A stretch of 64,000 nt of DNA from Nitrospirota bacterium (GCA_963737155.1 CAVTRN010000002.1:1472001-1536000); one strand, 5' to 3'; shown: positions 5,319 through 30,456, counted from the stretch's first letter. Translations and numbers: made by a program. Notes: generated from the letters alone by a model not told the origin.

Positions 5319-5586
5319 CTGCTGAAATATCAAACTCCCTATTAAAGGGAAATAAAGTCTGCGATGGAGTTCCACCGTAGAACAAAGAAATGACACATGG
5401 TTAATTGAAAAGCTAAATTACCATTCTCTGAGGCGCATGTTGCATTTGTGCCAAGAGCCATTTCCACTTTTGATTTGTCTTTGCCCGGGCAAATGAAATT
5501 GACACCGCCCGAGGGGAGTATTATGATGTCTGTGGATGGTCGCACATTCCTGTGACGACCCAATACAGTCGAAAAGAGAACCATTA

Positions 5587-6918: not shown

Positions 6919-7128
6919 AATTTTCCCCGTCTGTGGAGTCAAAGTTCCGGACACCTCTCTTGCCTTCCGTCACTCAATACAAACCGAATTTATACTAACA
7001 AATAATGCGGGAATGATTTTATTGGGTTTATTTCTCGTGCGGCGCGAGGTACCCTTATCAGATCGTATCTCAAGCTACTAAAGTGGCATATAAAAACATC
7101 CGAGAGGAGAGTCAAGCGCAATGGATGG

Positions 7129-7744
7129 TCACAGCATCATAAGCGACGTCATCATGGCGACGGACCAGATGATGTCCGGGGGCAGTTGCAGATCACAAGT
7201 AGAATCAAGGAGCAGGTCGACGCGAGCAGGGAACTCTTCATTCTCGAGCCAAAGCGAGAGGATGACCGGAGTATCTCGGAAATGGCCATAGCTGAATCGA
7301 TATGTCTGCCAAGCTGACGGGCTGTTGGGCGCCAAGAAGAATTCCTCTTTGCATAAACCCCTTTTTGTCATTTCCGTATTTTTCCGCTATTGAATCAAGG
7401 GGCAGAATATGAGATCCTCGGGTAAAAGCTTCTCCGCCGCGAATCTGCTCCAGTTTTGTGAGCCGGCCGGTACAAGTGATATCTTTGACACTCACCAGAT
7501 ACCAGAGAACCGAGAGCCTGAAAAAATAACTTAACCGCTGAAGGAGCGGGGCGCTTCCCTCTGCATCGCTCGTTATTGACCTGTTCTTGGACGAGACTGT
7601 AAAATCCATCCCGAAAGATTTGATCACGTATACGTCGCGCCCGGCGTCGAAGATGGCACCCGAAGCTCTACAGACAAAATCAGGCTGTAGTGATGCTAAA
7701 GTTTCCCACGCCTTATCCTCGCCCGGATTACACGCTGCCGTCAT
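7129..7744 (-). pseudogene. DUF3786-like protein, frameshifted near 7270
   Basis: ORF 7238-7744 ends QLWPFPR; the natural continuation PVILSLWLENEEFPARVDLLLDST lies in another frame ending at 7129; could be a sequencing error. Confidence 0.7.
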
Positions 7745-7892
7745 TTTATTCCCTCAAGTATGACATCCGAAGCTTCAATGGCATGATCCCGTTCCAGAAA
7801 AATAATTAGTTACTGCAATAGAAATGGAATTATCTTCCGCAAATCTTTTTTTGCATCTTACCAGCTTTACAATGAATTTCAAAGTAGTTTTA

Positions 7893-8062
7893 TGTTTCAG
7901 ATTTTAACACAGCGCATTAGAAACCATGTTGTGCATTTAAAATTATAAATGTCTTGATTTGCATAATTTTATATTGCAAATAAAGGTCTTTTGCATCATT
8001 TTTCATTGCCGACCTGTTTTTGATATTACTATGGTGTTTCAGTAGGGTTTAAAATTGAAACA
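7893..8062. promoter_or_regulatory. Two 17-bp near-palindromes, candidate enhancer-binding-protein sites
   Basis: TGTTTCAGATTTTAACA (7893-7909) and GGTTTAAAATTGAAACA (8046-8062) upstream of a sigma54 promoter. Confidence 0.45.
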
Positions 8063-8114
8063 TGAATATAACCGGTATATATAAAAATATGCATAAAAAC
8101 AGTATCTTATAGTA

Positions 8115-8130
8115 TGGCACTTGTATTGCA
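8115..8130 (+). promoter_or_regulatory. Sigma54 (-24/-12) promoter
   Basis: TGGCAC-TTGTA-TTGCA matches the TGGCAC-N5-TTGCW consensus. Confidence 0.8.
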
Positions 8131-8170
8131 TAATAAATATCAGAGTTTCACTCGTATAGGAGACAGATCG

Positions 8171-8671
8171 ATGGGAAAGAGGCAAGTGCTGTTTGTCACT
8201 TACCGTGATGAGAATCTTGAAGAAGGCGTTTCATACGTGATCGAATTGGCCAAGGCGATGTATGAAGACATTACCCTTCTTTTGGTGAGAAAGAAGAATA
8301 ATCTCATGGACAAGCTCGGGAATCTTATGACCGCTGTAAGTTTTGCAAAATCCGATAACCCCGATACTGTAAGAGATACCATGTTTACGGATTCAATTGG
8401 CGCCGAAGACCGATACGAAAAAGTGCTGGCCAATCTCGTCGCGCAGTGCCGAAGGGAGGGCATCCAGATGGGCGTTGAGGATACAGATCTTGATGCCATA
8501 TCAGGAATCCGGACCTTCCTGAAGAAGCACGCTGGGATCGACAAGGTCGTTCTGAGCCCGACCGTGACCGGCAGTGAAAACGTCTCAGCCAAGGATTTGC
8601 ACCGGCTCGTGCGGACGGCATCTCGGCCGATAGTAACCATGACCCGGCAGGCCTGCGACGGGGCATGTTAA
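8171..8671 (+). CDS. Conserved hypothetical protein, USP-like
   Basis: RBS AGGAGA before ATG 8171; alpha/beta pattern ending LVRTASRPIVTM like USP C-termini. Confidence 0.7.
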   Translation: MGKRQVLFVTYRDENLEEGVSYVIELAKAMYEDITLLLVRKKNNLMDKLGNLMTAVSFAKSDNPDTVRDTMFTDSIGAEDRYEKVLANLVAQCRREGIQMGVEDTDLDAISGIRTFLKKHAGIDKVVLSPTVTGSENVSAKDLHRLVRTASRPIVTMTRQACDGAC

Positions 8672-8772
8672 ATAATAGCATCAGAGGTTGTTTGAGGAAA
8701 CAAATCGTTCAGCGCTGAACGGTAAATAGACAGCGGAATTATTCTAAAATCAAGAGAAAAGGAGCAAGCGCC

Positions 8773-11677: not shown

Positions 11678-12607
11678 ATGTATCTTTATTTACCGGTAGC
11701 ACTGACAAGCATGAATATCTTAATTCCTGTCGGACTTGGTTTGGCGGTGGGGCTTTTATCCGGTCTCTTTGGAGTCGGAGGGGGATTTCTTCTGACGCCG
11801 CTTCTTATCATGTTCGGAATCCCGTCGACCGTTGCCGCAGCAACAGATTCTAACCAAATCGTCGCCGCCTCCACATCAGGTACCTACGCTCACTGGAAGG
11901 TTGGCAATGTGGACTTTAAAATGGGGATTTACCTTCTGGTCGGCGGGTTCGTAGGTGGCATCGTAGGCGTCCAGGCAATCAAGGTCCTGCACGCCATGGG
12001 CAACGCCGATTTCGTGATAAAGATGACCTATGTGCTAATGCTCGGGATTGTCGGCTCCTATATGTTCGTTGAAAGCCTTCAAAGCATGCACAAGAAAAAA
12101 GGCGCGGTAGTTGATAAGGTCAAAACAAGTGAAAAGGAATCGACAGTTGGAAAGTTCATGAAATCTCTGCCGCTTCAGACCCGATTCGAGAAGTCGGGAG
12201 TAACCCACTCAGCCTTGGTGCCGGTGGTGCTCGGTGCATTTGTTGGCGTCCTGGCCGCGATCATGGGGGTGGGCGGTGGTTTCCTGATGGTGCCGGTGAT
12301 GGTGTACATGCTCAGAATGCCGATGCACGTGGTGGTCGGAACTAGTCTGTTCCAGATCCTCTTTACCTGCATCGAGGTTACCTTTCTTCAGGCTTACACG
12401 AACCATAGCGTCGATTTCATGCTGGCAGTGCTCCTTCTAGTAGGTTCGACCCTCGGGGCACAGGTCGGCACCGTGTTGGGGAAAAAGCTGAAAGGCGAAC
12501 AGCTAAAGATTCTGCTCGCCTGTATTGTGCTTGTTGTGACCGTTAAGATCATTTTCGAATTGACGCTGACTCCATCATTATTGCTTTCACAAGTAGGAGG
12601 GCACTAA
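11678..12607 (+). CDS. Sulfite exporter TauE/SafE (TSUP) family protein
   Basis: Two GVGGGFL repeats, highly hydrophobic; RBS AAAGGAG before ATG 11678. Confidence 0.93.
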   Translation: MYLYLPVALTSMNILIPVGLGLAVGLLSGLFGVGGGFLLTPLLIMFGIPSTVAAATDSNQIVAASTSGTYAHWKVGNVDFKMGIYLLVGGFVGGIVGVQAIKVLHAMGNADFVIKMTYVLMLGIVGSYMFVESLQSMHKKKGAVVDKVKTSEKESTVGKFMKSLPLQTRFEKSGVTHSALVPVVLGAFVGVLAAIMGVGGGFLMVPVMVYMLRMPMHVVVGTSLFQILFTCIEVTFLQAYTNHSVDFMLAVLLLVGSTLGAQVGTVLGKKLKGEQLKILLACIVLVVTVKIIFELTLTPSLLLSQVGGH

Positions 12608-12609
12608 TC

Positions 12610-13443
12610 ATGTACCTCCACTTCTTAAGTCCCCTGATCCATTCTCTGAGATTTATCTGCAATGCCAGATTGTTCGGATTCATATCTCTGGCGCTGGTTT
12701 TTTCCGTGCTGCAACTTGCAGACGCCACACCCGCTTCGGCCATGCTCACGGCAACGGCGAATCATGATCACATCAAGATAGATTTCCTTTATCACGGTAG
12801 CAATGTAAGCATAAAGGGCGAATCAGACTCCGGTGTGGATCTGGTCATTAAGATAACCTCACCCGAGGGAGAGCAGACGCTGAAAAAGAAGGGCAAGGTC
12901 GGCGGTATACTCTGGATGAATGTCGGCAAGCTAACATTCGAGAAAACTCCAAATTTCTACGAAGTTTTCAGCACAAAAAATATCGAAGACATCCTGAGCA
13001 ATGAGGAAATGGAAAAATACGTGATCGGATATCCTGCGCTGCAAAAACATATTGAGATAAAACCGGTCGCAAATAACGTGGAGAAGGCCACCTGGTTTAA
13101 CGAGTTCGTTAAATTTAAGGAAAACTCCAAAGTATACGCTACGTCTTCTGGCAAGATAACGACGAAATCGGCCAATGGACGGCAGGAATACTATATTGAT
13201 ACCGACTGGCCTTACCAGGCCGAGCCCGACGATTATCTGATCACGGTCTATGCCGTGAAGAATAGCAAAGTTGTGGAACAGGCAGAGTCGAAGGTGAAAG
13301 TCGAACAGATCGGAGTAGTCAAGACATTGGCGACGATGGCGAAGAACAATGCAGCCTTGTATGGGTTACTTTCCATCGGCATTGCGCTGGGCGCAGGTTT
13401 CGGTGTTGGTCTGGTGTTCGGAAAGGGCGGAGGTTCTCATTGA
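12610..13443 (+). CDS. TIGR02186-family membrane protein (usual TauE partner)
   Basis: Signal-like N-terminus, IKIDFLYHG and KKGKVGGILWMN motifs, C-terminal TM; directly after TauE. Confidence 0.82.
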   Translation: MYLHFLSPLIHSLRFICNARLFGFISLALVFSVLQLADATPASAMLTATANHDHIKIDFLYHGSNVSIKGESDSGVDLVIKITSPEGEQTLKKKGKVGGILWMNVGKLTFEKTPNFYEVFSTKNIEDILSNEEMEKYVIGYPALQKHIEIKPVANNVEKATWFNEFVKFKENSKVYATSSGKITTKSANGRQEYYIDTDWPYQAEPDDYLITVYAVKNSKVVEQAESKVKVEQIGVVKTLATMAKNNAALYGLLSIGIALGAGFGVGLVFGKGGGSH

Positions 13444-14306
13444 TGTATAACTCAATCGTTGTAGGGTTCGACGAGTCTGAGTCAAGCAAAGCGGCGCTGA
13501 AAGAGGCTTCACTCAGAGTGAAAAATCATGGAGGAAAACTCTTCTTGGTTCATGCGGTCTATTTCGACAAGGAAGAGTTCACGACTCTCCCATCTCAAAT
13601 GGAAAAGCGTTTTGAGATCGGCACAAAGGTCTGCCTTGATGCGAGACAGAATCTCCATGATGATTTTGGACTGGACAGTAGAGTCGAGTCGGTCATCTGC
13701 GAGGGAGAACCGTCCGATGTAATCGTGGAAATTGCCCAGGGGAAAAAGGCTGAGCTTATTGCACTCGGTACCTACGGCAGGAAGGGGCTGAAAAGGCTGC
13801 TCATGGGCAGTGTGACGTCGCGGGTCATCCTGAACGCACCCTGCGATGTGCTGGTGGTCAAGAAAACCTGCCCCCAGTGCAGCGGCAGCTACCACTCCCT
13901 GCTAGTTGCTTTTGACGGATCTGAATCTAGCAAGAAAGCGCTGACAAAGGCTTGCGACCTTGCAAAAGTTGACGGCGCGGATGTATCGGTCCAATATGTC
14001 ATCCCCCGCTACGAGGAGATGATGGATTTCTTCAAGACCGAGTCGGTCAAAAAGAGCCTCTTCGAGGAAGCAGAAAAAATCGTAGATGGAGCGAAAAAGA
14101 TCTCGGCGGGCCTGGGGGTTTCAATCAAGACCGTAGTTCAAGAAGGCCACGCTGCTGAAAAGATTGTGGAGTTTGCCGATACAATGAAGCACGACTTGAT
14201 CGTCGTGGGCACCCATGGTTGGCGCGGCGTTAACAAGGCGCTCATGGGGAGCACGGCGGAACGGGTCATTGCTCATGCTTCATGTCCCATACTGATCACG
14301 AGGTGA
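13443..14306 (+). CDS. Universal stress protein (tandem USP domains)
   Basis: Two USP repeats: IVVGFDES...LIALGTYGRKG...GSVT and LLVAFDGS...IVVGTHG...GSTAE. Confidence 0.95.
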   Translation: MYNSIVVGFDESESSKAALKEASLRVKNHGGKLFLVHAVYFDKEEFTTLPSQMEKRFEIGTKVCLDARQNLHDDFGLDSRVESVICEGEPSDVIVEIAQGKKAELIALGTYGRKGLKRLLMGSVTSRVILNAPCDVLVVKKTCPQCSGSYHSLLVAFDGSESSKKALTKACDLAKVDGADVSVQYVIPRYEEMMDFFKTESVKKSLFEEAEKIVDGAKKISAGLGVSIKTVVQEGHAAEKIVEFADTMKHDLIVVGTHGWRGVNKALMGSTAERVIAHASCPILITR

Positions 14307-14311
14307 TTGAG

Positions 14312-14700
14312 TATGAAGGGTTATAGAAAGGCCCTTTATCGCATTAACCGGCTCGCAGGAGGTTCTGAAACAGGGTATCACGCTTGTCTAGGATGGGAAA
14401 ACGCGAATAACCGTCGTAAAGGTGGTCCGGACCCTTATGAAGGGGACCTGAAGGGAATCAAGAACCTGCACGACGTCCTGGATGACAACGGAGCGCGGGT
14501 CCCTTCCGACGTCACAAGCCGAAGGGTGCTCATCAAAACGCGATTTGAGCAGGAAGTGTCGGGAAGAATTGCCGGGATCTTGGAGTAGGGAAAATGCAAT
14601 CTCCTCACTATGGGGTTTAAGATGAAAACATGCATACTGAGTAGGCTCTTCGTCGATCAGATCGTCGAAAAAATCATTGACCCCGCGCCGTGTCTGGTTT
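14312..14700 (+). pseudogene. Decayed second USP-like gene
   Basis: Fragments MKGYRKA, PYEGDL, LIKTRFE and a CNLLTMG-like piece across frames; no intact ORF. Confidence 0.55.
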
Positions 14701-14792
14701 ATGTTATTGTATGGAGGGGCGACGCGCCATCTCCTGTTCGGCGTGCGAACAAAACAGGATATTAAACAATATGCTGATAAAGGGTGCACGTT

Positions 14793-14981
14793 ATGTTTGA
14801 AAGATTGTTGCAGCCAATGCAACTGATTCTTATCCTGTTGATCGTCCTGATCATTTTCGGTCCAGGGAAGCTCCACGAACTCGGCGCAGGACTGGGAAAA
14901 AGTGTTAGAGAATTCAAGAATGCCATGAAAGAAGGTCAGGAGACAGCGGTGATCGAAAATAAAGAAGAGAAGAAAGTCTGA
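14793..14981 (+). CDS. tatA: Twin-arginine translocase TatA/TatE subunit
   Basis: TM helix then IIFGPGKLHELGAGLGKSVREFK amphipathic helix. Confidence 0.92.
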   Translation: MFERLLQPMQLILILLIVLIIFGPGKLHELGAGLGKSVREFKNAMKEGQETAVIENKEEKKV

Positions 14982-15211
14982 TCTGCGCAGTGTGAATGCT
15001 TTAAAAAGCAGTGGATAACGATAGTGGGTTCCCTAAGGAGAATCAATCAACAAGAGAGTTCTGGGGAATTGTTCCGACTGATCCAGATCGTTATCGTTCG
15101 CCCGGCGCTTTTCTCGGGAGGTGCGAAATGCACCATCCCATTTCTTAAGACGCATATATGCGTGCTTGTTAAAAACCGTATTCCACTGATCACAGCACAT
15201 GGTGAAAATTT

Positions 15212-16855
15212 ATGATAAAGAAAAAATTCGGAAGAATTCTGAGACTCAAGATTTTTTCTGAGGACGAACTGGAGAAGTTTGCTGGGGAATCAAAGGCGTC
15301 CGGGGTGCCGCTGGAAGAACTTCTGATCAGCAAGGGCATAAGTAAGCACGAAATTCTGTTCTGTCTATCTGAATTCTATGGACTGCCATTCGTGGAATAC
15401 GCTGAAAGCGTTGTCGCTTCCTATTTCCTGGTTCTGCGGCTTGATCTGGAGCATCTCAAAAAGAACCTATGGTTTCCGCTTTCGGTTCGGGAAAAACAGG
15501 CCGAGGTAATTGCCTATCGTCCTGACGACCCTCGCGTGGAGGAGGAGATCAAGAAAACCCTGGGGGTAGAGCAGGTCAATTTCAGGGTCGCGCTTCCCTC
15601 AGACATCATCCGCATTATAGAGCACAATTTCGATGTAAATCCCTATTTCTGTATTTCCGGCGGTAGAACGCCGCTTGCGCGGGTGAGGACACTGTTCGCC
15701 TACCGGCGGTCCACGTATGCTCATTACCGCACTTTGTTCGCCAAAGGGAGGACTGGTCTCGCTTTTATCAGGACCGGTGTCTCCTTTATCGTAATTGCGC
15801 TTCTATTCATGCGCGTGCTGGGGTTTGGTTTTTACGCCATTCTTGAAACGCCGCTCATGATCGCTGGTCTCATTATGGTTTTCGATGGGACCAAATGGTA
15901 CCTTCCCGCACGGCGGATCGCCGATAAACCAATTGACGCGACATGTACAGAGGCGACCTGGGGTACCCGCGTGTTGAATGCCGAGTTAAACGATGGACCT
16001 CCCAAGTTCAGCCGGACAGAAAAAGTGAAGGGCTCGGCGGAGCTGAGGGCCGATTGGGAAAACCTGTCGCCCGTCATGAGACGCAGGTTCCTTGCAAGCG
16101 ACCGGACTGATATGGCCGAGGAGCGGACCTCACTTGCTGGCCACCGGACAAAACTCGCTAGGGCACGTACCGGCCTCGCTTTTACACGCACCGGTATCGC
16201 TTTCACCGGTCTCGGCATTGGGTTGATGAGGCAGTTTCAAGAAAGCCGATGGACGATCTTGGACGTCGTGCTTATCGTCATCGGAGTGCTCATGTCCGCG
16301 GAGGGATTCCATTGGTACTTCGGTGGCAGAAAGGCCGGAATCGAGGGATTGCGAACTGTGCTCGAAGTGCTGAACAAGGAAACCATCTGGGATTTGGTGT
16401 TTCCTCCAGGGCACAAACGATCTGGGCCCAAAAAGGACAAGGCCGGTCCGGCGGTCACCGCTGACCAGAAACCAGGCATCTGGGCAACAACAGGTCTTGC
16501 TCTCGAACGTACGGTGCTTGCCGACCGGCGGGGCGTTATGGCGAGGCTCCGCACGGTCATGGCGGTGTCGCGGACGGGTTTCTCCTATGTCCGAACCGGT
16601 ATGAGTATAACATCCGTGGGCGCCGGCCTCATGGCATATTTCGGCACAGCCTCCATCGGCTGGACGGTTTTCAACGTACTGCTGATCATCGGCGGTCTCC
16701 TCCTGATTGCGGACGGATATCGTTGGGTCCTACCGGCGGAACGTATGAGAAAAGAATATCCCTATTGTTACGGAGATATGGAAATAACCATTCCCGATTA
16801 TGGGAAACCAGCTGTCGAATGGGGGACGGTTATTTTTAATAACTATGAAGAGTGA
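15212..16855 (+). CDS. GspE/PilB N-terminal (MshEN-like) domain fused to three DUF202-like membrane repeats
   Basis: N-term LEELLISKGISKHEILFCLSEFYGLPFVEY; three RTxLAxxRT...RTGLAFxRTG repeats each followed by two TM helices; no ATPase motifs. Confidence 0.75.
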   Translation: MIKKKFGRILRLKIFSEDELEKFAGESKASGVPLEELLISKGISKHEILFCLSEFYGLPFVEYAESVVASYFLVLRLDLEHLKKNLWFPLSVREKQAEVIAYRPDDPRVEEEIKKTLGVEQVNFRVALPSDIIRIIEHNFDVNPYFCISGGRTPLARVRTLFAYRRSTYAHYRTLFAKGRTGLAFIRTGVSFIVIALLFMRVLGFGFYAILETPLMIAGLIMVFDGTKWYLPARRIADKPIDATCTEATWGTRVLNAELNDGPPKFSRTEKVKGSAELRADWENLSPVMRRRFLASDRTDMAEERTSLAGHRTKLARARTGLAFTRTGIAFTGLGIGLMRQFQESRWTILDVVLIVIGVLMSAEGFHWYFGGRKAGIEGLRTVLEVLNKETIWDLVFPPGHKRSGPKKDKAGPAVTADQKPGIWATTGLALERTVLADRRGVMARLRTVMAVSRTGFSYVRTGMSITSVGAGLMAYFGTASIGWTVFNVLLIIGGLLLIADGYRWVLPAERMRKEYPYCYGDMEITIPDYGKPAVEWGTVIFNNYEE

Positions 16856-18086
16856 GTTGATGAACGGCGATCTCGCGGATGATGTGGTGCGGCAGAGTTC
16901 GGAATTTTCGATCCTGGTAGAACGGGGGATTCTGAGCCAAGCGGAACTTGAGGAGGCGATAAGCACGGCTCAGGCTCGCGGGATCGAACTCGAAAAAGTC
17001 CTGCTCAGTGAATTCAGCGTGGCGAAACGGCATCTGCTTGATGCGCTGGCCGCATACTATCGCTGTGATTCCATCGAATACGATGAGCGTCTGCCGATTC
17101 CACCTGAGCTTCTGGCTATGCTCGACCAGGATTCACCTTCTTCATACCAATGGATGCCAGTGATGAAAGACAAATCAGGAACCGTGGTCATTGCAGCGAG
17201 AAATCCCGAAAGTCCCGAGATGCGTGAGGAGGTCAGAAAATATGTGATAGCGGACCGTTACGAATTCCGGGTCTCCCTTGATGCCGACATCCAATGGTAT
17301 ATCCAGGATTTCCTCCATGACAAGGTGGGACTTTTGATAGGAACGGAGCGCACCGGGTTGGCCTATTGGCGAAATACCATGGCGCAGTGGCGCACGAGGA
17401 TGGCCTGTTACCGGACGGATCTCGCGAATGCACGAACTGGCTTGGCCTTCCTCCGATGGGGTCTGGGGACAATCGCATTATCGAACGCGCTCCTGAAATC
17501 CAAAAACATTGCATACCATCCTGTTGTCTATTTCTCAGTTCTCACCGTCGGGATCGTTATCGCTTTTTACGGGCTGCCGATCTATTTGAATATTCGGAAA
17601 TCCCGATTGACTCCGCCCGGGCACCAGACGCTGGTGGAGGTAACGGCGACAACGATCCAATTCCTTGAGAATTATCATTTTATCGAGAACACAGGGGGTA
17701 AACAGGAGATGCAGGGGACGATGCTTGCGAGGATGGGTGATTATCTTGCCGATTACAGCACCTATCTAAACCCGACTCCATCCTCCAAGACCCGCACGAT
17801 GTTCGCGCGCGAACGGAACGTTCTGGCCGCCCAGCGGACGATCGCGGCCTGCTACCGGACCATCTATGCCCGCGCACGAACTGGGCTGGCGTTTATCCGG
17901 ACCGGCATTTCCTTTCTGAGTATCGGTATTGGTATCCTGGGGTATTTCGGGTTCGGTTTGCTTACGTCCTTCAACCTCTGGCTTATGGCCGCTGGCATTC
18001 TGATGCTCGTAGACGGAGTGCTCTGGTACTGGCCGGTTCGGAAGGAACAGGGTGAAGCACCGAGGGGCATCGCATATCCGGAATGA
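16845..18086 (+). CDS. GspE/PilB N-terminal (MshEN-like) domain fused to two DUF202-like membrane repeats
   Basis: ILVERGILSQAELEEAI...LLDALAAYYRCDSIEY; two RT-heptad/RTGLAF repeats; start overlaps previous stop. Confidence 0.75.
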   Translation: MKSELMNGDLADDVVRQSSEFSILVERGILSQAELEEAISTAQARGIELEKVLLSEFSVAKRHLLDALAAYYRCDSIEYDERLPIPPELLAMLDQDSPSSYQWMPVMKDKSGTVVIAARNPESPEMREEVRKYVIADRYEFRVSLDADIQWYIQDFLHDKVGLLIGTERTGLAYWRNTMAQWRTRMACYRTDLANARTGLAFLRWGLGTIALSNALLKSKNIAYHPVVYFSVLTVGIVIAFYGLPIYLNIRKSRLTPPGHQTLVEVTATTIQFLENYHFIENTGGKQEMQGTMLARMGDYLADYSTYLNPTPSSKTRTMFARERNVLAAQRTIAACYRTIYARARTGLAFIRTGISFLSIGIGILGYFGFGLLTSFNLWLMAAGILMLVDGVLWYWPVRKEQGEAPRGIAYPE

Positions 18087-18134
18087 GTGCAGTTTAGACT
18101 GCACTGAATTATATAAAAAAAGCAAAGAAGGACG

Positions 18135-18305
18135 ACATAGAATCGGTTACCTTCGATACTCATGCTACTAAAAGATATGAATGTAATGGCTCATGGTTTC
18201 GGATGCTTTAGGTTTGGAGACTGGAATCATTTTACTACTTCGGGCAAATTGGACTCTGAAACCCAAAAGCACTTATCGGAATGTATTCAGGGTGCCTGGC
18301 AATAG
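18135..18305 (+). repeat. Degenerate ~175-bp repeat, copy 2
   Basis: Similar to 8941-9115. Confidence 0.75.
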
Positions 18306-18473
18306 GTATTTTTTTAGCCAATAACTCCGCAACAATTTTATCTCCCCTTGAAAACTAATTAGAAAGCTGATAATTATCCCCTCTATTGCATCCTGAACAA
18401 TTCGCATTCAATAAAGTGGTCGATTTTGTGTTAAAACTTATATGGAAATATATAAAAGATAGAAGGTACAGCA

Positions 18474-18786
18474 ATGAAGCACCGTAGTGCTCTGCCACAA
18501 TATGAGTGGAGGTGCTGATCTAAATCAGCTCAAATAATTCACGACAAACCACAACTTGTTGGTAGCCTGGTGGAGATGACCAATATGTGTGGAAAGCCCA
18601 AATGCAAATACACGAACAGCAAGAAACACAGATCGTAGTGCATTGCGGGACGGCAGGAAAAAAACGAAAAATGATTCATATCCGGCATTGGCTGAAAACG
18701 CTGATTTCCAGGGGCTAAGGGTCTATCAGGAGCCTGGGGAGCAGATGAAAGCCATCAATCAAGCCTTCCGCGTATTCTTCCGATGA
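18474..18786 (+). pseudogene. DUF6788-like transposon accessory gene remnant
   Basis: Reads LVGSLVEMTNMCGKPKCKYTNSKKH (cf. GSLxxxxxxCGKPxCxC..H) with in-frame stops. Confidence 0.55.
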
Positions 18787-18982
18787 AACAAAGCAAGCGG
18801 GTAGACATTCTCCGGAGACTATTTATTACGCCAACAAGGTGTTGAATAGTCTTGGAGATAAATTTATTTTGCTTTTCAAACAAATATGTTAAAATGAGCT
18901 ATCATGAAAGCGATAGGATGCAAATTGCCATTTTGCGAGTAGTCCGATATCCGTCGTCCCTCATTGAGGGGAACTTTCCAGC

Positions 18983-19486
18983 ATGGAGTTGTGGCTCATC
19001 AGAATGAAATGCTCGATAGTACAGATATTGGGATCAGGCATCAGTCAGATCGAAAACAACAAGATTGTAGCCATTGTTCCGAAAGAGGAGATACGACTGA
19101 TCAAACTTTCCCATGATTCACGATCCCGCCACCCCTTTCTGCGGTTTCTCGCAGGGTTTGTCCTGATGGTGACGGGGCTGATCCTGCTCCTAGCGGAGTT
19201 CATTGTCGCAGAAGGCGGTATCGTGTTCCTTCAGATGAAATCGTTTGTCTTCGGTTTTCCCATCGTACCCATCCTTCTCTGGACCATGGTTGGCGTGGGT
19301 GCCTGGCTCTTGATCGGGGTCTTCCGTGGACGATACAATTTTCTAATCAAGACCGATCGGGGCATGCGGAAAATATTCTTCGAGGAGTCGGCCGATATCC
19401 GGGAGATTCGGGAAATCATCACCAGAGCGAAGAATGAGTTCGGGTATGATATCGATGTCACGCTCTTGGATTCCATGCATTTTTAG
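18983..19486 (+). CDS. Hypothetical membrane protein
   Basis: 167-aa ORF with two hydrophobic segments upstream of the kinase gene. Confidence 0.7.
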   Translation: MELWLIRMKCSIVQILGSGISQIENNKIVAIVPKEEIRLIKLSHDSRSRHPFLRFLAGFVLMVTGLILLLAEFIVAEGGIVFLQMKSFVFGFPIVPILLWTMVGVGAWLLIGVFRGRYNFLIKTDRGMRKIFFEESADIREIREIITRAKNEFGYDIDVTLLDSMHF

Positions 19487-19542
19487 AATGTATCGGATAG
19501 GCAGGTCTCCGGCAAGGGAGTTCGACCCGGGTTTATCAACGA

Positions 19543-20976
19543 ATGAAAATCGAAAACAAACTGTTCATTTCGAACATCATCAACGGGGCATTCATAATAC
19601 TGATCGGTCTGTTTGCGTTTCAGAACATGAATCTCGTTCTAACGAAACTCAGATTTGTGGAAATCGCCGACGACCTGAATGCATCGTTTCTGACCATGCG
19701 GCTCTCGGAAAAAAACTATTTTCTCTACCACGACCGTAAAGCGCTGTCGGAGATACGCGAGAAGATCTCAACGACCTTGGAAACCATCAGCAGTGTACGA
19801 GAGGATATTTTTCGAGCAATAGGCGAAACTGACCTCAATAACTTGGTGACACGTCTGACGGTCTACTCAACGGTTGTCGAACAAACACGAAAGGAGAATA
19901 ACTGGGATCCGCGTATGGAGGCGCGTCTCAGGGAGGAGGGGAAAAAGTTAAGGGAATTCTCCGATTCCATCACGCACCTCGAGCGCAGACGCGTAAACGA
20001 CATCATCCTGAGTTCGAAACGGATTCTGCTATATTCCTTCTGGGCCATACTGGCATTGGCGCTTTTTATAAGCCGTTTTATTTCGGAGAAAATTGTCCGC
20101 TCTCTCCGCGCAATTGAAAAGATGACCAAATCCATATCGGAAGGGAATTTTCATCGGATAGGAGGGCACCGGACGAGGGACGAACTTGACTCGGTCATAA
20201 CGGCAATCAACTCCATGTCCGAGGAGCTTGCGCACCGCGAGGAACAGATTATACAGTCCAAGAAACTTGCCTCGCTCGGCATACTGACAGCGGGCGTGGC
20301 CCATGAAATCACGAACCCGCTGAACAACATCTCCATGATTGCACAAACCTTTGATGAACTGTACGCGCAATTGAACGAGAAGGACCGCCGCGAATTCATG
20401 AGCAAGGTGGACGCGGAAACGGAACGCATCAGAAAGATCGTGAAGAACCTACTAGATTTTTCTAAACCCAAGGATTCGATTCTGAAAGAAGCGGATATCA
20501 ACAAGGTGATCCAGAAGGCCCTTACGCTGGTTCAGAACATGATCGACGTGCAGAATATCAGTACAACAGTGACGCTTGGAGACGGCATTCCCCATCTCTA
20601 TATCGACGAGGACCAGATCCAGCAGGTGCTAGTGAATCTCGTGACGAATGCGATCCAGGCTATGTCGTCAGGCGAAAGGCTGTTTATCGCATCGAGGCTC
20701 GGCAAAGACCGGGATTCAGTCGAGATTTCGGTGATGGACACGGGCAAAGGCATAACTCCTGAGTTTCTTCCCCATATTTTCGATCCTTTTTTCAGCACCA
20801 AGGGCGAGGGGGGAACCGGTCTGGGACTTTCAGTTAGTTATGGTATTATTAAACATCACAAGGGCGAAATCAGGGTAGAAAGCAAAGTGGGGGTCGGCAC
20901 GACCTTTACTATAGAATTGCCGAGCTATCATCCAGAGGAGAATAATGATGGACAAACACAGAATCATGATCATTGA
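19543..20976 (+). CDS. HAMP sensor histidine kinase
   Basis: TMs, HAMP (RDELDSVITAINSM), H-box AHEITNPL, GGTGLGL; shares EKNYFLY sensor motif with the 3741 kinase. Confidence 0.95.
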   Translation: MKIENKLFISNIINGAFIILIGLFAFQNMNLVLTKLRFVEIADDLNASFLTMRLSEKNYFLYHDRKALSEIREKISTTLETISSVREDIFRAIGETDLNNLVTRLTVYSTVVEQTRKENNWDPRMEARLREEGKKLREFSDSITHLERRRVNDIILSSKRILLYSFWAILALALFISRFISEKIVRSLRAIEKMTKSISEGNFHRIGGHRTRDELDSVITAINSMSEELAHREEQIIQSKKLASLGILTAGVAHEITNPLNNISMIAQTFDELYAQLNEKDRREFMSKVDAETERIRKIVKNLLDFSKPKDSILKEADINKVIQKALTLVQNMIDVQNISTTVTLGDGIPHLYIDEDQIQQVLVNLVTNAIQAMSSGERLFIASRLGKDRDSVEISVMDTGKGITPEFLPHIFDPFFSTKGEGGTGLGLSVSYGIIKHHKGEIRVESKVGVGTTFTIELPSYHPEENNDGQTQNHDH

Positions 20977-21316
20977 TGATGAGAAGATCGTGGGTGACAT
21001 GGCGAAAATGTCGCTCGAACACGAAGGATACGAAGTGGAGACCTTCCTGAACGCCGAGCCGGCGCTTGCACGGCTCAAGGAACAGAAATTCCATGTTGTC
21101 GTCACCGATTACAAGATGAAGGGCATCGACGGAATGGAGGTGCTCAAAACCGTGAAAAAAGAGTATCCCGGTACCACAGTGATTATGATTACCGCTTTCG
21201 CGAACCTCGATGCGGCAATCGAAGCGCTGCGCGGCGATGTGCACGATTTTTTCCCCAAGCCGGTCAAGATCAAGGAACTGAAGGAGTCTATCCGGCGGGC
21301 GCTGAGCAAGGCATGA
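20948..21316 (+). CDS. Single-domain response regulator
   Basis: IMIIDDE, TDYKM, ITAF, KP receiver motifs; overlaps kinase end. Confidence 0.93.
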   Translation: MDKHRIMIIDDEKIVGDMAKMSLEHEGYEVETFLNAEPALARLKEQKFHVVVTDYKMKGIDGMEVLKTVKKEYPGTTVIMITAFANLDAAIEALRGDVHDFFPKPVKIKELKESIRRALSKA

Positions 21317-21384
21317 CGTCAATTTGTAAAATAAGACTTCTTACAAGAACATCATCAATGGTGTCTTTATTATTTTAAGGAACC

Positions 21385-23976
21385 GTGAAACAGCCAGTGC
21401 GCATACAATCATTCTTTTCCTCTCTGTTACGAACGTTTTCGCGCAGGAAAACCATGGGCAGCCGTGAGGAATTCAAAGCAGCCTTCGAGCGTTTTAAAAG
21501 TGTACTCGACAGCAACAACCGGGCCTTGGAAACCATAACGGATATGGGAGAAAAACTGGGCGGAGACTATCTTTTTGACATTGTTTACCTCAAAAAAGCC
21601 TATACTCGCCTGAAAGAAGACATGACGTTCTCCCTCAGAAGCTTCGATGAACTCACGCAGAACCGCTATCAGCGGCTGCATGATGTATTCGGCTACCTCG
21701 ATTCCCTGGTCATGCGCATGGTGGATGAAACGCCGCTCCCAGCCCCGCCGTTGGTGCTGTCTCTTGAAAGTATTTCCTGGGGAACGCCGCACGACGTGGG
21801 CGGCAAAAACGCGCATCTTGCGGAGGTGAGAAACCAGCTTGGCCTCAACGTCCCCGATGGTTTTGTTGTTACGACGTCTGCATTTGACGCGTTCATTAGA
21901 TTCAACAACCTGGAAAGTCATATTGAAAGAATTAAACAAATAGCCGCTACCAATGATGCAGGTCTCCAGGAACTGCAGGAGCTCATCCTTCAAGGCCCCT
22001 TCCCGCCTGAGTTAAGTCTTACCATGAAAAAAGCCCTGGAAGTGATCAAGTCACGTTATGGAGAATGTTTTCTGGCGATCAGGAGCAGCGCCGAAGAAGA
22101 AGACAGCGGCAGCTCCTTTGCCGGCCAGTTTAAAACCATCCTGAACGTCCCACTCTCGCAGGAATCTGTGGAGCGGGCATACCGGGAGGTGATCGCAAGC
22201 CTCTTTTCGAGCAAGGCTGTTTCTTATCAGCGGCAGACCGGTTATGACATTGGGTCATTTAAAATGGCCGTCGGCTGTCTGGTCATGGTCGACTCGGCTT
22301 CGAGCGGCGTTGTTTATTCGACAATGCCGGAAGGGGACAACGGCACACTGATCATCAGCGCAGCCTGGGGCTTGGGGGAAGCCATTGTCGAAGGGAAAAT
22401 CGAAACCGACATCTCCATCGTTCGGAAGGAAAAGAAACCAGTCCTGCTCCAAACAGCAACGGGAAACAAGAGTACCATGATTGTCGGGAACGTGAAAGGC
22501 GGGATCATCGAGGTCAATACCCCTGAGGACCTCAGGCAGAAGCCATGCCTTTCGTCTGAGCAAGTAACGGAGCTCGCCACACTGGCGATAGCCATCGAAC
22601 GTTACTTCGGCTCTCCGCAGGACATAGAATGGGCCATGGATAAGAGGGGCGCCCTTTTCATTCTCCAGGCACGGCCGCTGAAAGTGAAGGCAAAAAGCTT
22701 GCAATCCGAAGATATTCTGACAGAGAATTCCGTTTCAGATGCCATACATCCGGCAATCCTGCGCGATCAAGGGTTCGTGGTTCAGAGAGGCGCGGGAGCA
22801 GGAAAGATTTTCGTCGTAACAAATCCCTCTGACAGCATGATACTGCCAAAAGGTGCTGTTCTGGTAGCGAAACACGATTCATCGCTCTTTGTCAGAATAA
22901 TGCCTTACGTATCGGCGATCATCACGGAAACGGGCTCGCAGACCAGCCACATGGCCGCGCTCTGCAGGGAGTTGAAAATTCCGACAATTGTAAATGTTCC
23001 GAACGCGATGGAGATCCTGAAACATGGACAGGATATTACCGTCATCGCTGGAAACGACAACAAAATGTCGGTATACCGTGGAATTATCCGAGATGTACTC
23101 ATGAAGTCGGGACAGGATTTTAGCCGGATGGAGGACGTCTATGAGTTTCGTAAAAAACGGTATATGCTGAGATATCTTTCTCCCCTGAACCTTATTGATC
23201 CGCTCATGGATGAGTTCACCCCCGAGCGCTGCAGAACCATGCACGACATCCTCCGTTTCATGCATGAGAAAGCCGTAGCCGAACTGGTGGAGCGCGCGCG
23301 GGGAGGAAGTGCAACCCTCAAAAAGCGCGGCGCGGTCACGCGGCTTGACCTTCCCGTGCCAGCGGGGATTCTTGTCATGGATATGGGCGGCGGCCTGGAG
23401 CTGAGCGGACGAGATGGAGCGGCGACCTTCGACCAGATCACCTCGATTCCCTTCCGGGCGATCATAGGGGGAATGATTCGTCCGGGTGCATGGCATTCCG
23501 ATGCCGTAGCACTCAAAACGAGTGATTTTTTATCGAGCATGATGCGGATGCCAGACATTACGAATACCACAGACAGTACGGCGGGATACAATGTAGCGAT
23601 TATCTCACGGGAATATGTGAACATGAGCATCAGGTTCGGATACCATTTCAACATGGTGGACTGCTATAGCAGCGAGACGACGAAAAACAACCACATATAT
23701 TTTCGTTTTGCCGGAGGGGCAACGGACTTGACAAAGCGGTCGAGGAGGCTAGAACTCATCGCACGGGTTCTCACTTCATACGGTTTCAATATTAAAATAA
23801 AGGGAGACCTTCTAATTGCCCGACTTGCTGGGATCAATCAGACGGAAATGGGAAAAGTGCTCGACCAGACCGGTCGTTTAATTGCCTTCGCCCGTCAGCT
23901 CGATGCCGTGCTTCATGACGATGCCGCTGTCGAACGGTATGCTAACAATTTTCTTGACGGCACTTATGAATTATGA
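21385..23976 (+). CDS. PEP-synthase-like protein (PPDK N-terminal ATP-grasp + His swivel domain + non-canonical C-terminal domain)
   Basis: VGGKNAHL, AIRSSAEEED...SFAGQF, PQDIEWA, ILQARPL, TGSQTSHMAALCREL. Confidence 0.88.
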   Translation: MKQPVRIQSFFSSLLRTFSRRKTMGSREEFKAAFERFKSVLDSNNRALETITDMGEKLGGDYLFDIVYLKKAYTRLKEDMTFSLRSFDELTQNRYQRLHDVFGYLDSLVMRMVDETPLPAPPLVLSLESISWGTPHDVGGKNAHLAEVRNQLGLNVPDGFVVTTSAFDAFIRFNNLESHIERIKQIAATNDAGLQELQELILQGPFPPELSLTMKKALEVIKSRYGECFLAIRSSAEEEDSGSSFAGQFKTILNVPLSQESVERAYREVIASLFSSKAVSYQRQTGYDIGSFKMAVGCLVMVDSASSGVVYSTMPEGDNGTLIISAAWGLGEAIVEGKIETDISIVRKEKKPVLLQTATGNKSTMIVGNVKGGIIEVNTPEDLRQKPCLSSEQVTELATLAIAIERYFGSPQDIEWAMDKRGALFILQARPLKVKAKSLQSEDILTENSVSDAIHPAILRDQGFVVQRGAGAGKIFVVTNPSDSMILPKGAVLVAKHDSSLFVRIMPYVSAIITETGSQTSHMAALCRELKIPTIVNVPNAMEILKHGQDITVIAGNDNKMSVYRGIIRDVLMKSGQDFSRMEDVYEFRKKRYMLRYLSPLNLIDPLMDEFTPERCRTMHDILRFMHEKAVAELVERARGGSATLKKRGAVTRLDLPVPAGILVMDMGGGLELSGRDGAATFDQITSIPFRAIIGGMIRPGAWHSDAVALKTSDFLSSMMRMPDITNTTDSTAGYNVAIISREYVNMSIRFGYHFNMVDCYSSETTKNNHIYFRFAGGATDLTKRSRRLELIARVLTSYGFNIKIKGDLLIARLAGINQTEMGKVLDQTGRLIAFARQLDAVLHDDAAVERYANNFLDGTYEL

Positions 23977-24240
23977 CTTGGCGAATGCCCAACACACCCA
24001 TCCTTAATATTCCGAAACGCTATGCTGCACGCACATAGAGAATCCAGACTCCCTCATGACAATGTGTGGATAAGTCAATGAGATTGGAAGTAATCGCAAA
24101 TGTTTTTCTAAGAGTTTTAAGATATATTGAATATGGCAGTCCAGTTATGGTATAGTTGCTTGTCCTTGCTAGACTCGCTGTTCTTGTTTGCTTCTTTATA
24201 GGGCAAGACACAGGAATTAGAGGCGGGATAAAAACTATTT

Positions 24241-24618
24241 ATGATGGAACACCCGAAAAATATACTGGTTGCGGATGATGAAGCCGGCATTCGCGAGTTT
24301 CTCACTAAGACCCTTAATGAGAATGGTTTTCATGCAATCGCGGCAAAGGACGGAGTGGAAGCATTGCGACTGGTGGACGCTTCGGAGGAGCCAATCGACG
24401 TTTTGATTATTGATGTAGTTATGCCTCGCTTGAACGGAAAGGAACTGGCCAGCACCATACAATCTCATCATCCAGAGATGAAAATAATTCTGATATCGGG
24501 ATACCCGGATGATTTTCTTGCCCGATACGGAGTTCCAACCGAAAGAATCCGTTATCTGAAAAAGCCCTTCACTGCGACCACCTTACTGGAAACGGTTCGC
24601 GATGAACTCAATCGATAG
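24241..24618 (+). CDS. Single-domain response regulator
   Basis: ILVADDE, IDVVMP, ISGY, KPF. Confidence 0.93.
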   Translation: MMEHPKNILVADDEAGIREFLTKTLNENGFHAIAAKDGVEALRLVDASEEPIDVLIIDVVMPRLNGKELASTIQSHHPEMKIILISGYPDDFLARYGVPTERIRYLKKPFTATTLLETVRDELNR

Positions 24619-24763: not shown

Positions 24764-25165
24764 ATGCAAAACAAGATTGTCGTGCGTTATCAGGACGGCC
24801 GCTTGCTTAAAGGGTTCACTGCTGATTTTATGCCGTCGAAGGATGTTTTCCACATAGTTCCGACGGATGCGCCTCTTGGCGCTAAACCCATGACCATCAA
24901 TATGCGCGAGTTAAAAGCGGTCTTCTTCGTGAAGGATTTCGTTGGAAATTCACTGTACGATGATAAAAAAGACTTCGATCCCGCTAAACCGGTTTCTGGC
25001 AAAAAGATTAAAGTGGCATTCAGAGACGGTGAAACGCTGGTCGGCACGACCCAAGGGTACCAGCCCGGGAGGCAGGGCTTCTTCGTTTTTCCCGCTGATA
25101 CGCAATCCAATATAGAAAGATTTTACGTTGTTACCCAAGCCACAAGTTCGGTCTCATTTCTTTAA
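24764..25165 (+). CDS. DUF6982-like protein with internal two-fold repeat
   Basis: KIVVRYQDGRLLKG and KIKVAFRDGETLVG repeats. Confidence 0.75.
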   Translation: MQNKIVVRYQDGRLLKGFTADFMPSKDVFHIVPTDAPLGAKPMTINMRELKAVFFVKDFVGNSLYDDKKDFDPAKPVSGKKIKVAFRDGETLVGTTQGYQPGRQGFFVFPADTQSNIERFYVVTQATSSVSFL

Positions 25166-27590: not shown

Positions 27591-27938
27591 CTATCCTGGA
27601 GATTGGCCTGCTTCGAGTAGGCTGATGATAGGTTCATCAGGATGGGGGAGACCGGCTATCTTCCATGCTACCAGCGGGTTGAAGAATTTCTCCGATATGC
27701 AGTCCTTTGGAGCATGGATATTCCTGCAGATCGAATGAACAATGGGGAAGAAGTTGTAGGTTTTGTAGTGGTCACGGATGAATTTCAGCATCGCAATGTT
27801 TTCAGGGCTCAAGTTCATAATCCCTGCTCTTGCCGCCAGTTCACGCGCCACTTTTTCATCCCAGTCGTTCAAATTGACAAGATACCCATCGTTATCTACG
27901 GCGATTATTCTCTCTTTATCATGTTTCACTACAGTCAT
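27591..27938 (-). CDS. TusE/DsrC/DsvC-family protein lacking the C-terminal catalytic Cys
   Basis: VDNDGYLVNLNDWDEKVARELA and KIAGLPHP; tail DEPIISLLEAGQSPG instead of PxxCV. Confidence 0.85.
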   Translation of the reverse strand: MTVVKHDKERIIAVDNDGYLVNLNDWDEKVARELAARAGIMNLSPENIAMLKFIRDHYKTYNFFPIVHSICRNIHAPKDCISEKFFNPLVAWKIAGLPHPDEPIISLLEAGQSPG

Positions 27939-30306: not shown

Positions 30307-30456
30307 CGAATAATAATTTGCCGAGAAAGCATCAAGGCACAGAAAAAATGCCACCGTGAAAATTGCCTTGGATAGGACAGAATGTATGGCCCTGGAACGT
30401 AAAAGACGCAGTATTCCCCTCTGTATTTAAGCATCGAGGCATGCCCCCAGGAAAAA

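Follow-up and report, generated by a model that had tools for sequence, protein, structure and literature searches.

A coupled pair of MshEN–DUF202 genes in Nitrospirota with five arginine-ladder hairpins, a candidate pseudo-pentameric assembly for anionic cargo

In this work we analysed two neighbouring genes, here labelled DufA and DufB, in a stretch of 64,000 nucleotides from a Nitrospirota bacterium (GCA_963737155.1, CAVTRN010000002.1:1472001-1536000); the whole stretch is called the window, and positions are given in its numbering. Each gene encodes an N-terminal domain of the MshEN fold followed by DUF202 membrane hairpins, three in DufA and two in DufB, and each of the five hairpins opens with a ladder of arginines spaced exactly seven residues apart. 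DUF202 is a large family of which, to our knowledge, the VTC polyphosphate channel of eukaryotes is the only understood member, and we know of no function for its bacterial members. We consider it moderately probable, on the basis of conservation and of a predicted complex, that DufA and DufB assemble one to one into a pseudo-pentameric ring of five DUF202 hairpins, which would serve as a gated conduit or binding track for anionic cargo. An earlier reading of the window, made from the sequence alone (the sequence-only reading), had arrived at a similar proposal, and we state below what became of its individual claims.

Five arginine-ladder hairpins in a conserved gene pair

Both genes lie on the plus strand (Table 1). 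Taken from its first ATG, the DufB open reading frame (ORF) runs from 16800 to 18086 on the plus strand and encodes 428 residues. The ATG at 16845 is the start position matched by close orthologues, and it yields a protein of 413 residues and an overlap of 11 nucleotides with the DufA stop; an alternative ATG at 16860 lies 4 nucleotides past this stop. With either start, the two genes are coupled. In Pfam searches, DufA matched MshEN (PF05157) at residues 56–141 (E = 2.9e-11, 43.6 bits against a cut-off of 23.1) and DUF202 (PF02656) in three stretches (E = 9.4e-16, 58.5 bits against a cut-off of 23.4), the best of which, residues 312–370, belongs to hairpin 2. DufB likewise matched MshEN (E = 4.2e-9, 36.7 bits against 23.1) and DUF202, the latter in two stretches (E = 1.8e-7, 31.9 bits against 23.4). 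When the whole genome was scanned in six frames, four of the five hairpins exceeded the DUF202 cut-off singly, and the fifth scored 22.5 bits against 23.4. Pfam detected no domain other than MshEN and DUF202 in either protein; no ATPase domain (T2SSE) follows the N-domain in DufA or in DufB, and the NCBIfam PilB model reached 25 bits against a cut-off of 675, in a match confined to the N-domain. The picture drawn by the sequence-only reading, of two overlapping genes that each carry a GspE/PilB-type N-domain without its ATPase and then three and two membrane repeats of the DUF202 family, was therefore correct. Relatives of DufA numbered 991 at E ≤ 1e-3 among 8000 candidates scored. A literature search for both domain names together found no published description of an MshEN–DUF202 fusion, and no study of such proteins stood among the matches listed for publications naming DUF202 or YidH.

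In all five hairpins, RT dipeptides at an exact spacing of seven residues precede the first membrane helix (residues 152–187, 298–326 and 433–461 of DufA; 184–212 and 332–367 of DufB in the 428-residue numbering), and each hairpin opens with five to six heptads of the form R-T-x-L-A-x-x. The ladder arginines are invariant or at least 90% conserved in the 70-sequence alignment of each protein, which comprises 69 genome loci and the window, with identities of 46–93% to the window protein. R291 of DufA, one heptad before R298, is invariant, and with this residue counted the pair has 29 ladder arginines. We further aligned 90 single hairpins, five per genome from 18 genomes. Heptad position a was Arg in 100% of the non-gap cells, position b was Thr in 74%, position d was Leu or Met in 77%, and position e was Ala in 83%, and no acidic residue was found at a, b, d or e in these 90 hairpins. 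The five 42-residue stalks of the window proteins contain 38 Lys or Arg and 6 Asp or Glu, which gives a net charge of +32. Within the membrane stretch of the same alignment, position a is occupied by Ser, Gly or Ala at profile position 47, one heptad past the last ladder arginine, and by Arg in 42 of the 90 hairpins at position 54, two heptads past it. Position e is Ser, Ala or Gly at 44 and Gly, Ala or Thr at 51, and positions f and g hold bulky hydrophobic residues. The second basic ring is represented in the window proteins by R201 and R340 of DufA and K218 of DufB.

An AlphaFold2 model of DufA, built on the 70-row alignment, had a mean predicted local distance difference test score (pLDDT) of 82.2 and a predicted template modelling score of 0.75. 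In this model the first helix of each hairpin is continuous over 52–55 residues and is followed by a second helix, and a hydropathy scan agreed with two membrane helices per hairpin. Because the modelled helix is continuous, heptads and first membrane helix would form a single rod, and by helix arithmetic this rod may reach some 45–60 Å into the cytoplasm. The long arginine heptad that had been noticed at the start of each repeat, running into two membrane helices, is thus present with exact spacing and conserved arginines.

In order to describe how constant the pair is, we scanned one genome per species and found 78 loci, in Nitrospirota/Thermodesulfovibrionales, Dissulfurispiraceae, Dissulfuribacterales, Desulfobulbaceae including Candidatus Electronema, and others. 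DufB was found 3' of DufA in 73 of the 73 loci with room for it, that is, with at least 1.2 kb after DufA; the other five loci end too early. Two loci (L020 and L055) have about 1.7–1.8 kb between DufA and DufB, and in a third (L010) the B gene is shortened. A second survey covered 57 genomes, at least 80% complete, of the window's own order. Here the pair was present in 31 genomes and in 11 of 18 genera, and each positive genome had one A locus with an adjacent B gene (two matches each, with three pieces in G011). These results demonstrate that the system is accessory and patchy, yet always a pair where it is present in the order, and the conservation of the 3+2 pair across genomes, which had been put forward as a check, was observed in both surveys.

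The predicted ring and the VTC channel

The complex was predicted with ESMFold2 from DufA residues 145–547 and DufB residues 160–413, with our own alignments, in three runs. It scored 0.67 (0.67, 0.67 and 0.68 in the runs), and the best of three controls scored 0.00. The mark used for this score is reached by 58 of 80 solved complexes and by 2 of 110 mismatched pairs, rates that are approximate here since our own alignments were used. Agreement between the runs was at least 69% of contacts. The predicted contacts join hairpin 1 of DufA (152–202) to hairpin 2 of DufB (313–366), and hairpin 3 of DufA (429–476) to hairpin 1 of DufB (166–219); no contact with DufB was predicted for hairpin 2 of DufA. 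In the first interface, positions a, b, e and f of DufA hairpin 1 meet g, a, d and e of DufB hairpin 2, and in the second, positions a, b, e and f of DufB hairpin 1 meet g, a, d and e of DufA hairpin 3. Because the two interfaces share this register and DufA hairpin 2 is free of contacts, a ring in the order A1-A2-A3-B1-B2 would close with one handedness. Because a and e occur in both flanks of each helix, Arg at a and Ala at e would point to the axis. The prediction, with its controls passed, thus speaks for the pseudo-pentamer that the sequence-only reading had derived for a one-to-one heterodimer, in the form of a closed ring of five hairpins with arginines facing inward.

The precedent for such a ring is the VTC complex, and it is as the sequence-only reading had stated it, with five subunits that each place one basic helix in the pore. 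VTC is described as a 3:1:1 pentamer of Vtc1, Vtc3 and Vtc4 with three membrane helices per subunit, in which five first membrane helices (TM1) form the channel (PMC9911596). In this description the residues that line the channel are, in Vtc1, K24 and R31 and, in Vtc4, K622 and R629, with a spacing of seven within each pair; Vtc3 adds K694, K698, R705 and R709, and the channel is narrowest at the ring formed by R31, R709 and R629 (PMC9911596). The architecture SPX-VTC-DUF202 is named in a further report (PMC12388464). The pair can be related to these positions through P0193, a protein of 476 residues with five DUF202 hairpins in one chain, whose best PDB sequence matches are the Vtc1 chains of 9UMG, 8I6V and 7YTJ (E = 0.05–0.08). 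DufA 312–370 aligns with positions 1–63 of the Pfam DUF202 model, P0193 252–314 aligns with positions 1–67 of the same model, and P0193 254–319 aligns with Vtc1 26–90. Read through these three alignments, R312 of DufA would correspond to K24 of Vtc1, and R319 to R31. The sequence of P0193 is rich in Asn and has, by its composition, a eukaryotic look.

In the arrangement that we favour, the five inner helices, one of 52–55 residues from each hairpin, would bundle in parallel, with heptad positions a (Arg) and e (Ala, Ser or Gly) lining the axis, and each hairpin would add one outer membrane helix. The 29 ladder arginines, with the net charge of +32 of the five stalks, would provide a positively charged cytoplasmic path of about 60 Å by helix arithmetic. 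On its way across the membrane this path would meet first small residues arranged as a ring and then, close to the outer face, a second ring that is partly basic. Small oxyanions and linear phospho- or sulfur-polyanions are possible cargoes, and the assembly would be related in principle to the five TM1 helices of the VTC channel. Control would pass from an adjacent sensor kinase through a receiver-only regulator to the conduit, the MshEN-fold N-domains would act as protein-docking modules and not as receptors of cyclic di-GMP (c-di-GMP), and a co-inherited PpsA-like dikinase would make or prime the cargo or phosphorylate a component.

Several observations weigh against this arrangement. Confidence in the predicted complex is moderate (pLDDT 58–65, and at least 57 for the partner), its pass may reflect likeness to a solved related hetero-pentamer, namely VTC, and five arginines per layer might fill the axis and leave no lumen. 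VTC has three membrane helices per module and the pair has two. The VTC catalytic domain (PF09359) gave 0 matches in the window's genome, which is 100% complete in 2 contigs. A profile of the hairpin matched no VTC chain among PDB sequences at E ≤ 1, and its single match was a TetR protein (E = 0.27). VTC was also absent among the listed Foldseek and VIA matches of the DufA model, whose membrane part matched generic helical repeats or toroids only (Z about 10); since single VTC chains are small, however, an unlisted VTC is no evidence for different folds. The distribution in the order is patchy, as described above, the copies in four of its genomes (G010, G011, G027 and G040) contain internal stops, and no fused A–B protein was found at E ≤ 1e-3 in a search that was weak. 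A further point is P0132 (399 residues), an A-type protein with two hairpins only. At the 75 genome loci found with P0132 the match spans about 1.5–1.7 kb, the three-hairpin form, except where the contig breaks off within the gene, as it does at 2 loci. No genome locus shows a two-hairpin A form, and we rejected P0132 as a case of a variable repeat total and read it as a deletion or an assembly collapse. P0163 and P0174, each with MshEN and one hairpin, were set aside as well, and they look like truncated or frameshifted A-type genes.

Gene context and alternative explanations

Downstream of the pair follow a sensor histidine kinase, a receiver-only response regulator and a PpsA-like dikinase (Table 1). 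The kinase was found downstream on the same strand in 53 of the 62 loci with room for it, the receiver in 52 of 61, and the dikinase in 38 of 52. The sequence-only reading had placed the pair in a TauE/USP/TatA cluster. These neighbours are indeed present upstream, but they are not the constant context: of the 65 loci long enough to show it, 38 have TauE upstream in the same orientation. The membrane-protein ORF between DufB and the kinase is a variable insert, with a tblastn match in 13 of the 78 loci. In one locus (L044:7574-10189) the B-type frame continues as an ORF of 872 residues that reaches the region of the histidine kinase, owing to a fusion of natural origin or to an error in sequencing. 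A scan of positions 14300–24300 for promoters and terminators returned 9 and 15 sites, where 10.0 and 9.9 were expected, and is therefore uninformative.

The dikinase combines the ATP-grasp and phosphohistidine domains of its family with a C-terminal part of another kind. The NCBIfam model of phosphoenolpyruvate (PEP) synthase scored 319.7 bits on it against a cut-off of 598 and covered model positions 6–468 of 798 only, and the PEP/pyruvate-binding TIM barrel (PEP-utilizers_C) gave no match even at E ≤ 10. The C-terminal domain of 303 residues had no Pfam match at E ≤ 10 and no meaningful PDB sequence match. Its AlphaFold2 model (pLDDT 69; residues 90–303 confident, the first 89 low) shows an alpha/beta sheet domain, for which Foldseek found no counterpart at E ≤ 1e-3 and VIA reached at best a Z of 6.2. 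The genuine pyruvate phosphate dikinase (PPDK) of the genome is located elsewhere, on contig 1. Contig 1 also carries the genome's only other DUF202 gene, a canonical single-domain form of 135 residues beside a MarC-family gene (L079:8025-8432, minus strand). We considered this gene and a PPDK_N gene 5 kb from it as a second system, and rejected it as a coincidence of a canonical DUF202 gene by MarC with an ordinary PPDK that has PEP-utilizers_C.

Within the order, orthologues of the dikinase were called by the C-terminal domain, at 53–100% identity, with the next best match at 37%. An orthologue was found in 29 of the 57 genomes. Pair and dikinase occurred together in 28 of the 57 (24 on the same contig), the dikinase without the pair in one (G039), the pair without the dikinase in three (G021, G026 and G053), and neither in 25; we treat this co-occurrence as a pattern and not as a statistical test, since related genomes are not independent. 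A sister system repeats the link between DUF202 and a dikinase independently. In 12 loci of Desulfobacterales type, a single DUF202 hairpin is fused to a receiver domain, and a paralogous dikinase, at 30–33% identity over nearly its full length, lies directly 3' of the fusion in 11 of the 11 loci with room. The system was seen in L081–L091; in L081, for example, the fusion occupies 4983–6089 and the dikinase 6094–8685. The receiver of the window and the one that is fused to the single hairpin share 45% identity over 122 residues, whereas a control receiver of the window (24241–24615) is 23% identical to the fused one. The same combination of a single hairpin and a C-terminal receiver domain was seen in P0148. 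In genomes of the order without the pair we found further paralogous dikinases, of about 1060 residues, beside genes for ChrB_C, Usp, PP2C and HD proteins (L230:4199-8113; L231:1374-10669, two in tandem), and these neighbours hint at a regulatory or protein-directed role.

This context bears on the alternative that there is no conduit, and that the five-helix arginine stalk is a membrane-anchored signalling or scaffold assembly with affinity for an anionic ligand or partner. In that case a phosphorylation switch would be made up of kinase, receiver and dikinase, and its target might be the Thr beside each Arg. The constant neighbours of the pair are indeed regulatory, in the sister family a single hairpin carries a directly fused receiver, the paralogous dikinases have a PP2C phosphatase and Usp proteins as neighbours, and five arginines per layer could block the axis. 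We nevertheless hold this alternative to be unlikely, although it deserves serious weighing. The small or polar a/e face runs on through the membrane helix to the second basic ring, which would be superfluous for a cytoplasmic scaffold, and the homologous positions of VTC line a real channel in the published description (PMC9911596). Moreover, in P0244 (489 residues) an RT-heptad DUF202 module is fused to a transporter domain of the SBF (bile acid:sodium symporter) family.

As for the cargo of the favoured conduit, polyphosphate made by known enzymes proved an unlikely candidate. The window's complete genome has no match to PPK1 or PPK2, and it lacks the VTC domain as stated above. In the order, where the positive controls were detected, PPK1 was found in one of the 57 genomes (G024) and PPK2 in none of them, and both are missing from 30 of the 31 genomes with the pair. 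Because PPK1 and PPK2 are nearly absent from the order, polyphosphate made by the known kinases is an unlikely cargo. Ordinary polyphosphate is likewise unlikely unless a new synthase exists, for which the dikinase would be the candidate. PPK1 works through a phosphohistidine. It can be asked whether the phosphohistidine of the dikinase builds polyphosphate or another phospho-polyanion independently of PPK and feeds it into the arginine-lined stalk, much as the VTC polymerase does. The five-unit DUF202 design with basic positions of VTC type, the co-inheritance of dikinase and pair, the dikinase paralogue after the single-hairpin fusion in the sister system, and the absence of the known polyphosphate kinases in genomes that keep a Ppx-GppA homologue (there is one in the window's genome) all fit such a synthase-translocase. 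Against it stand a C-terminal domain of no recognisable fold or family, the regulatory or protein-directed enzyme hinted at by the neighbours of the paralogous dikinases, and the lack of support so far for polyphosphate in these organisms. Ppx-GppA proteins also take part in (p)ppGpp metabolism, and the homologue may serve there instead. We therefore regard a synthase-translocase of this kind as quite doubtful. The same low probability attaches to the wider conjecture that the five-gene module is a bacterial counterpart of VTC made of unrelated parts, in which the dikinase, with a new substrate domain, would polymerise or charge a phospho-anion, perhaps polyphosphate, in lineages lacking both PPK1 and PPK2, the stalk of 29 arginines and the pore would thread the product to the periplasm, and the module's own kinase and receiver would exert control. 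If the dikinase does supply the cargo, sulfur-cycling anaerobes without PPK would have a new route to a phospho-polyanion.

The stoichiometry of the assembly was considered together with the architectures of related proteins. When 1.84 billion representative proteins were searched with the hairpin profile, 3463 matched at E ≤ 1e-3, and architectures were taken from the best 150 of these. Three hairpins are present in each of the top 11, B-type proteins of about 400 residues with two hairpins come next, and single-hairpin proteins follow. Two of the single-hairpin proteins, P0142 (294 residues) and P0143 (373 residues), carry a ladder of about 17 or more consecutive RT heptads before two membrane helices, which implies very long arginine-lined stalks if these proteins are oligomeric. 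P0201 and P0220, with six stretches each, were rejected, since the heptad part of the profile had picked them up falsely; they are coiled-coil proteins of eukaryotic type (SPRY/Ig, leucine zippers). Single-hairpin relatives must oligomerise by themselves, and our prediction covered a single one-to-one arrangement, which leaves some room for separate homo-oligomers of DufA and of DufB, or for a larger mixed ring, with 3+2=5 as a coincidence. We judge this to be very unlikely in view of the strict pairing and the overlapping genes, of a modelled interface that comprises exactly the two free edges of each chain, and of the natural single chain with five hairpins, P0193.

The N-domains, finally, are of the MshEN fold, which is complete in DufA. 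The N-domain of DufA matched MshE (5htl_B) in VIA with a Z of 14.2 and a root-mean-square deviation of 3.3 Å over 138 of 139 residues, and it matched the c-di-GMP-bound PilF-GSPIIB in Foldseek (E = 5.8e-5). The receptor motif for c-di-GMP is given as two copies of RLGxx(L/V/I)(L/V/I)xxG(L/V/I)(L/V/I)xxxxLxxxLxxQ, of 24 residues each (PMC5013675). When DufB was aligned with MshE (5htl), S-E-F and E-L-E stood at the two RLG sites, and the first motif retained its hydrophobic pattern. DufA has KFG opposite the KLG of PilF-GSPIIB and P-L-E at the second site, and the G of KFG is not conserved in the family consensus. The NCBIfam model c-di-GMP_motif scored 25.2 bits on DufB against a cut-off of 38 and gave no match in DufA. 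The replacement of the RLG motif reported by the sequence-only reading is thus real, and KFG in DufA was correctly named, but its EFS in DufB is one residue off, since S-E-F aligns with R-L-G. Canonical c-di-GMP binding by either N-domain appears unlikely from these alignments, and because the canonical motif is lost in both N-domains, control through the receiver and through protein contacts is more likely. That both MshEN domains bind c-di-GMP and thereby open the pore is accordingly a highly improbable explanation, for which the complete fold, the Pfam MshEN matches in both proteins and the hydrophobic pattern in the first DufB motif could be cited, but which conflicts with the degenerate sites and the failed motif model in both proteins.

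Other genes of the window lie farther downstream. Directly past the dikinase are a second receiver-only protein (24241–24615) and a DUF6982 protein (24764–25162), both on the plus strand. They are followed by a DsrC-like gene (27594–27938) and by an ORF of 767 residues without a Pfam family (28054–30354), which adjoins an AAA gene of CbbQ/NorQ type (30460–31269). Two transposase genes are present, one of DDE type (31536–33092) and one of Mutator type (46155–47420).

Table 1. Features of the pair and of its surroundings, in window positions
Feature	Position	Strand	Description
TauE, Alph_Pro_TM, double Usp (2xUsp) and TatA genes	11678..14981	+	Upstream genes, identified by Pfam; frequent, not constant
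DufA	15212..16855	+	ORF of 547 residues; N-domain of MshEN fold, then three Arg-ladder DUF202 hairpins
DufA N-domain (residues 1-143)	15212..15640	+	MshE-N / GspE-N1 fold; canonical c-di-GMP motifs degenerate
DufA hairpin 1 (residues 148-237)	15653..15922	+	Ladder Arg 152, 159, 166, 173, 180, 187; helices 152-203, 209-237
DufA hairpin 2 (residues 287-387)	16070..16372	+	Ladder Arg 291, 298, 305, 312, 319, 326; helices 287-341, 348-387
DufA hairpin 3 (residues 423-515)	16478..16756	+	Ladder Arg 433, 440, 447, 454, 461; helices 423-477, 482-515
DufB	16845..18086	+	413 residues; MshEN-fold N-domain, then two Arg-ladder DUF202 hairpins; translationally coupled to DufA
DufB N-domain (residues 16-160)	16890..17324	+	MshEN family; S-E-F and E-L-E in place of the two RLG of MshE
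DufB hairpin 1 (residues 165-253, 413-residue numbering)	17337..17603	+	Ladder Arg 169, 176, 183, 190, 197, 204
DufB hairpin 2 (residues 313-400, 413-residue numbering)	17781..18044	+	Ladder Arg 317, 324, 331, 338, 345, 352
Membrane-protein ORF	18983..19486	+	167 residues; between DufB and kinase; variable insert; no Pfam or NCBIfam match
Sensor histidine kinase	19543..20976	+	Two membrane segments, HAMP, HisKA, HATPase_c (Pfam)
Receiver-only response regulator	20945..21316	+	123 residues (Pfam)
PpsA-like dikinase	21385..23976	+	863 residues; PPDK_N ATP-grasp, PEP-utilizers phosphohistidine swivel domain, C-terminal 303 residues without recognised family

Relation to known systems

If the arrangement that we favour is correct, the pair represents a bacterial assembly that is defined and strictly conserved, with a five-module design split over two genes and the pore-lining basic positions multiplied into a ladder. 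Such a heptad ladder would be an unusual design principle for an anion path, and what bacterial DUF202 proteins conduct becomes directly testable with this pair.

Each part of the system resembles a known one and departs from it. The dikinase shares the ATP-grasp and phosphohistidine swivel domains with PEP synthase PpsA and with PPDK, but where these have the PEP/pyruvate TIM barrel it has the alpha/beta domain of 303 residues, which has no clear fold match. The N-domains share the whole fold, and the Pfam family MshEN, with the MshE-N, PilF-GSPII and GspE-N1 domains of type II secretion and type IV pilus ATPases. In those proteins the domain belongs to an ATPase, whereas here it is fused to membrane hairpins and its c-di-GMP motifs are degenerate. 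The scan, which covered 30 of the 53 ORFs of the window, found no type II or type IV secretion or pilus gene, in agreement with the sequence-only reading. Bacterial single-domain DUF202 proteins of the YidH type belong to the same Pfam family as the hairpins of the pair, but they have a single module with about two heptads. YidH itself has three membrane helices.

The closest comparison is with the VTC channel (three Vtc1, Vtc3 or Vtc2, and Vtc4; PDB 7YTJ, 8I6V and 9UMG). Both share the DUF202 membrane module. Five modules stand round one axis in VTC, as the model predicts for the pair, and basic residues seven apart on the first helix of each module face the channel, an orientation that for the pair comes from the prediction. 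The two differ in that VTC draws its five modules from five chains, while the pair would build them from two (3+2), and in the ladder, which in the pair has five to six arginines per helix and would extend far into the cytoplasm, compared with two basic rings in Vtc1. Pfam finds no SPX or TTM polymerase domain in DufA or DufB; the pair has instead its MshEN-fold N-domains, and its partners are a kinase, a receiver and a dikinase.

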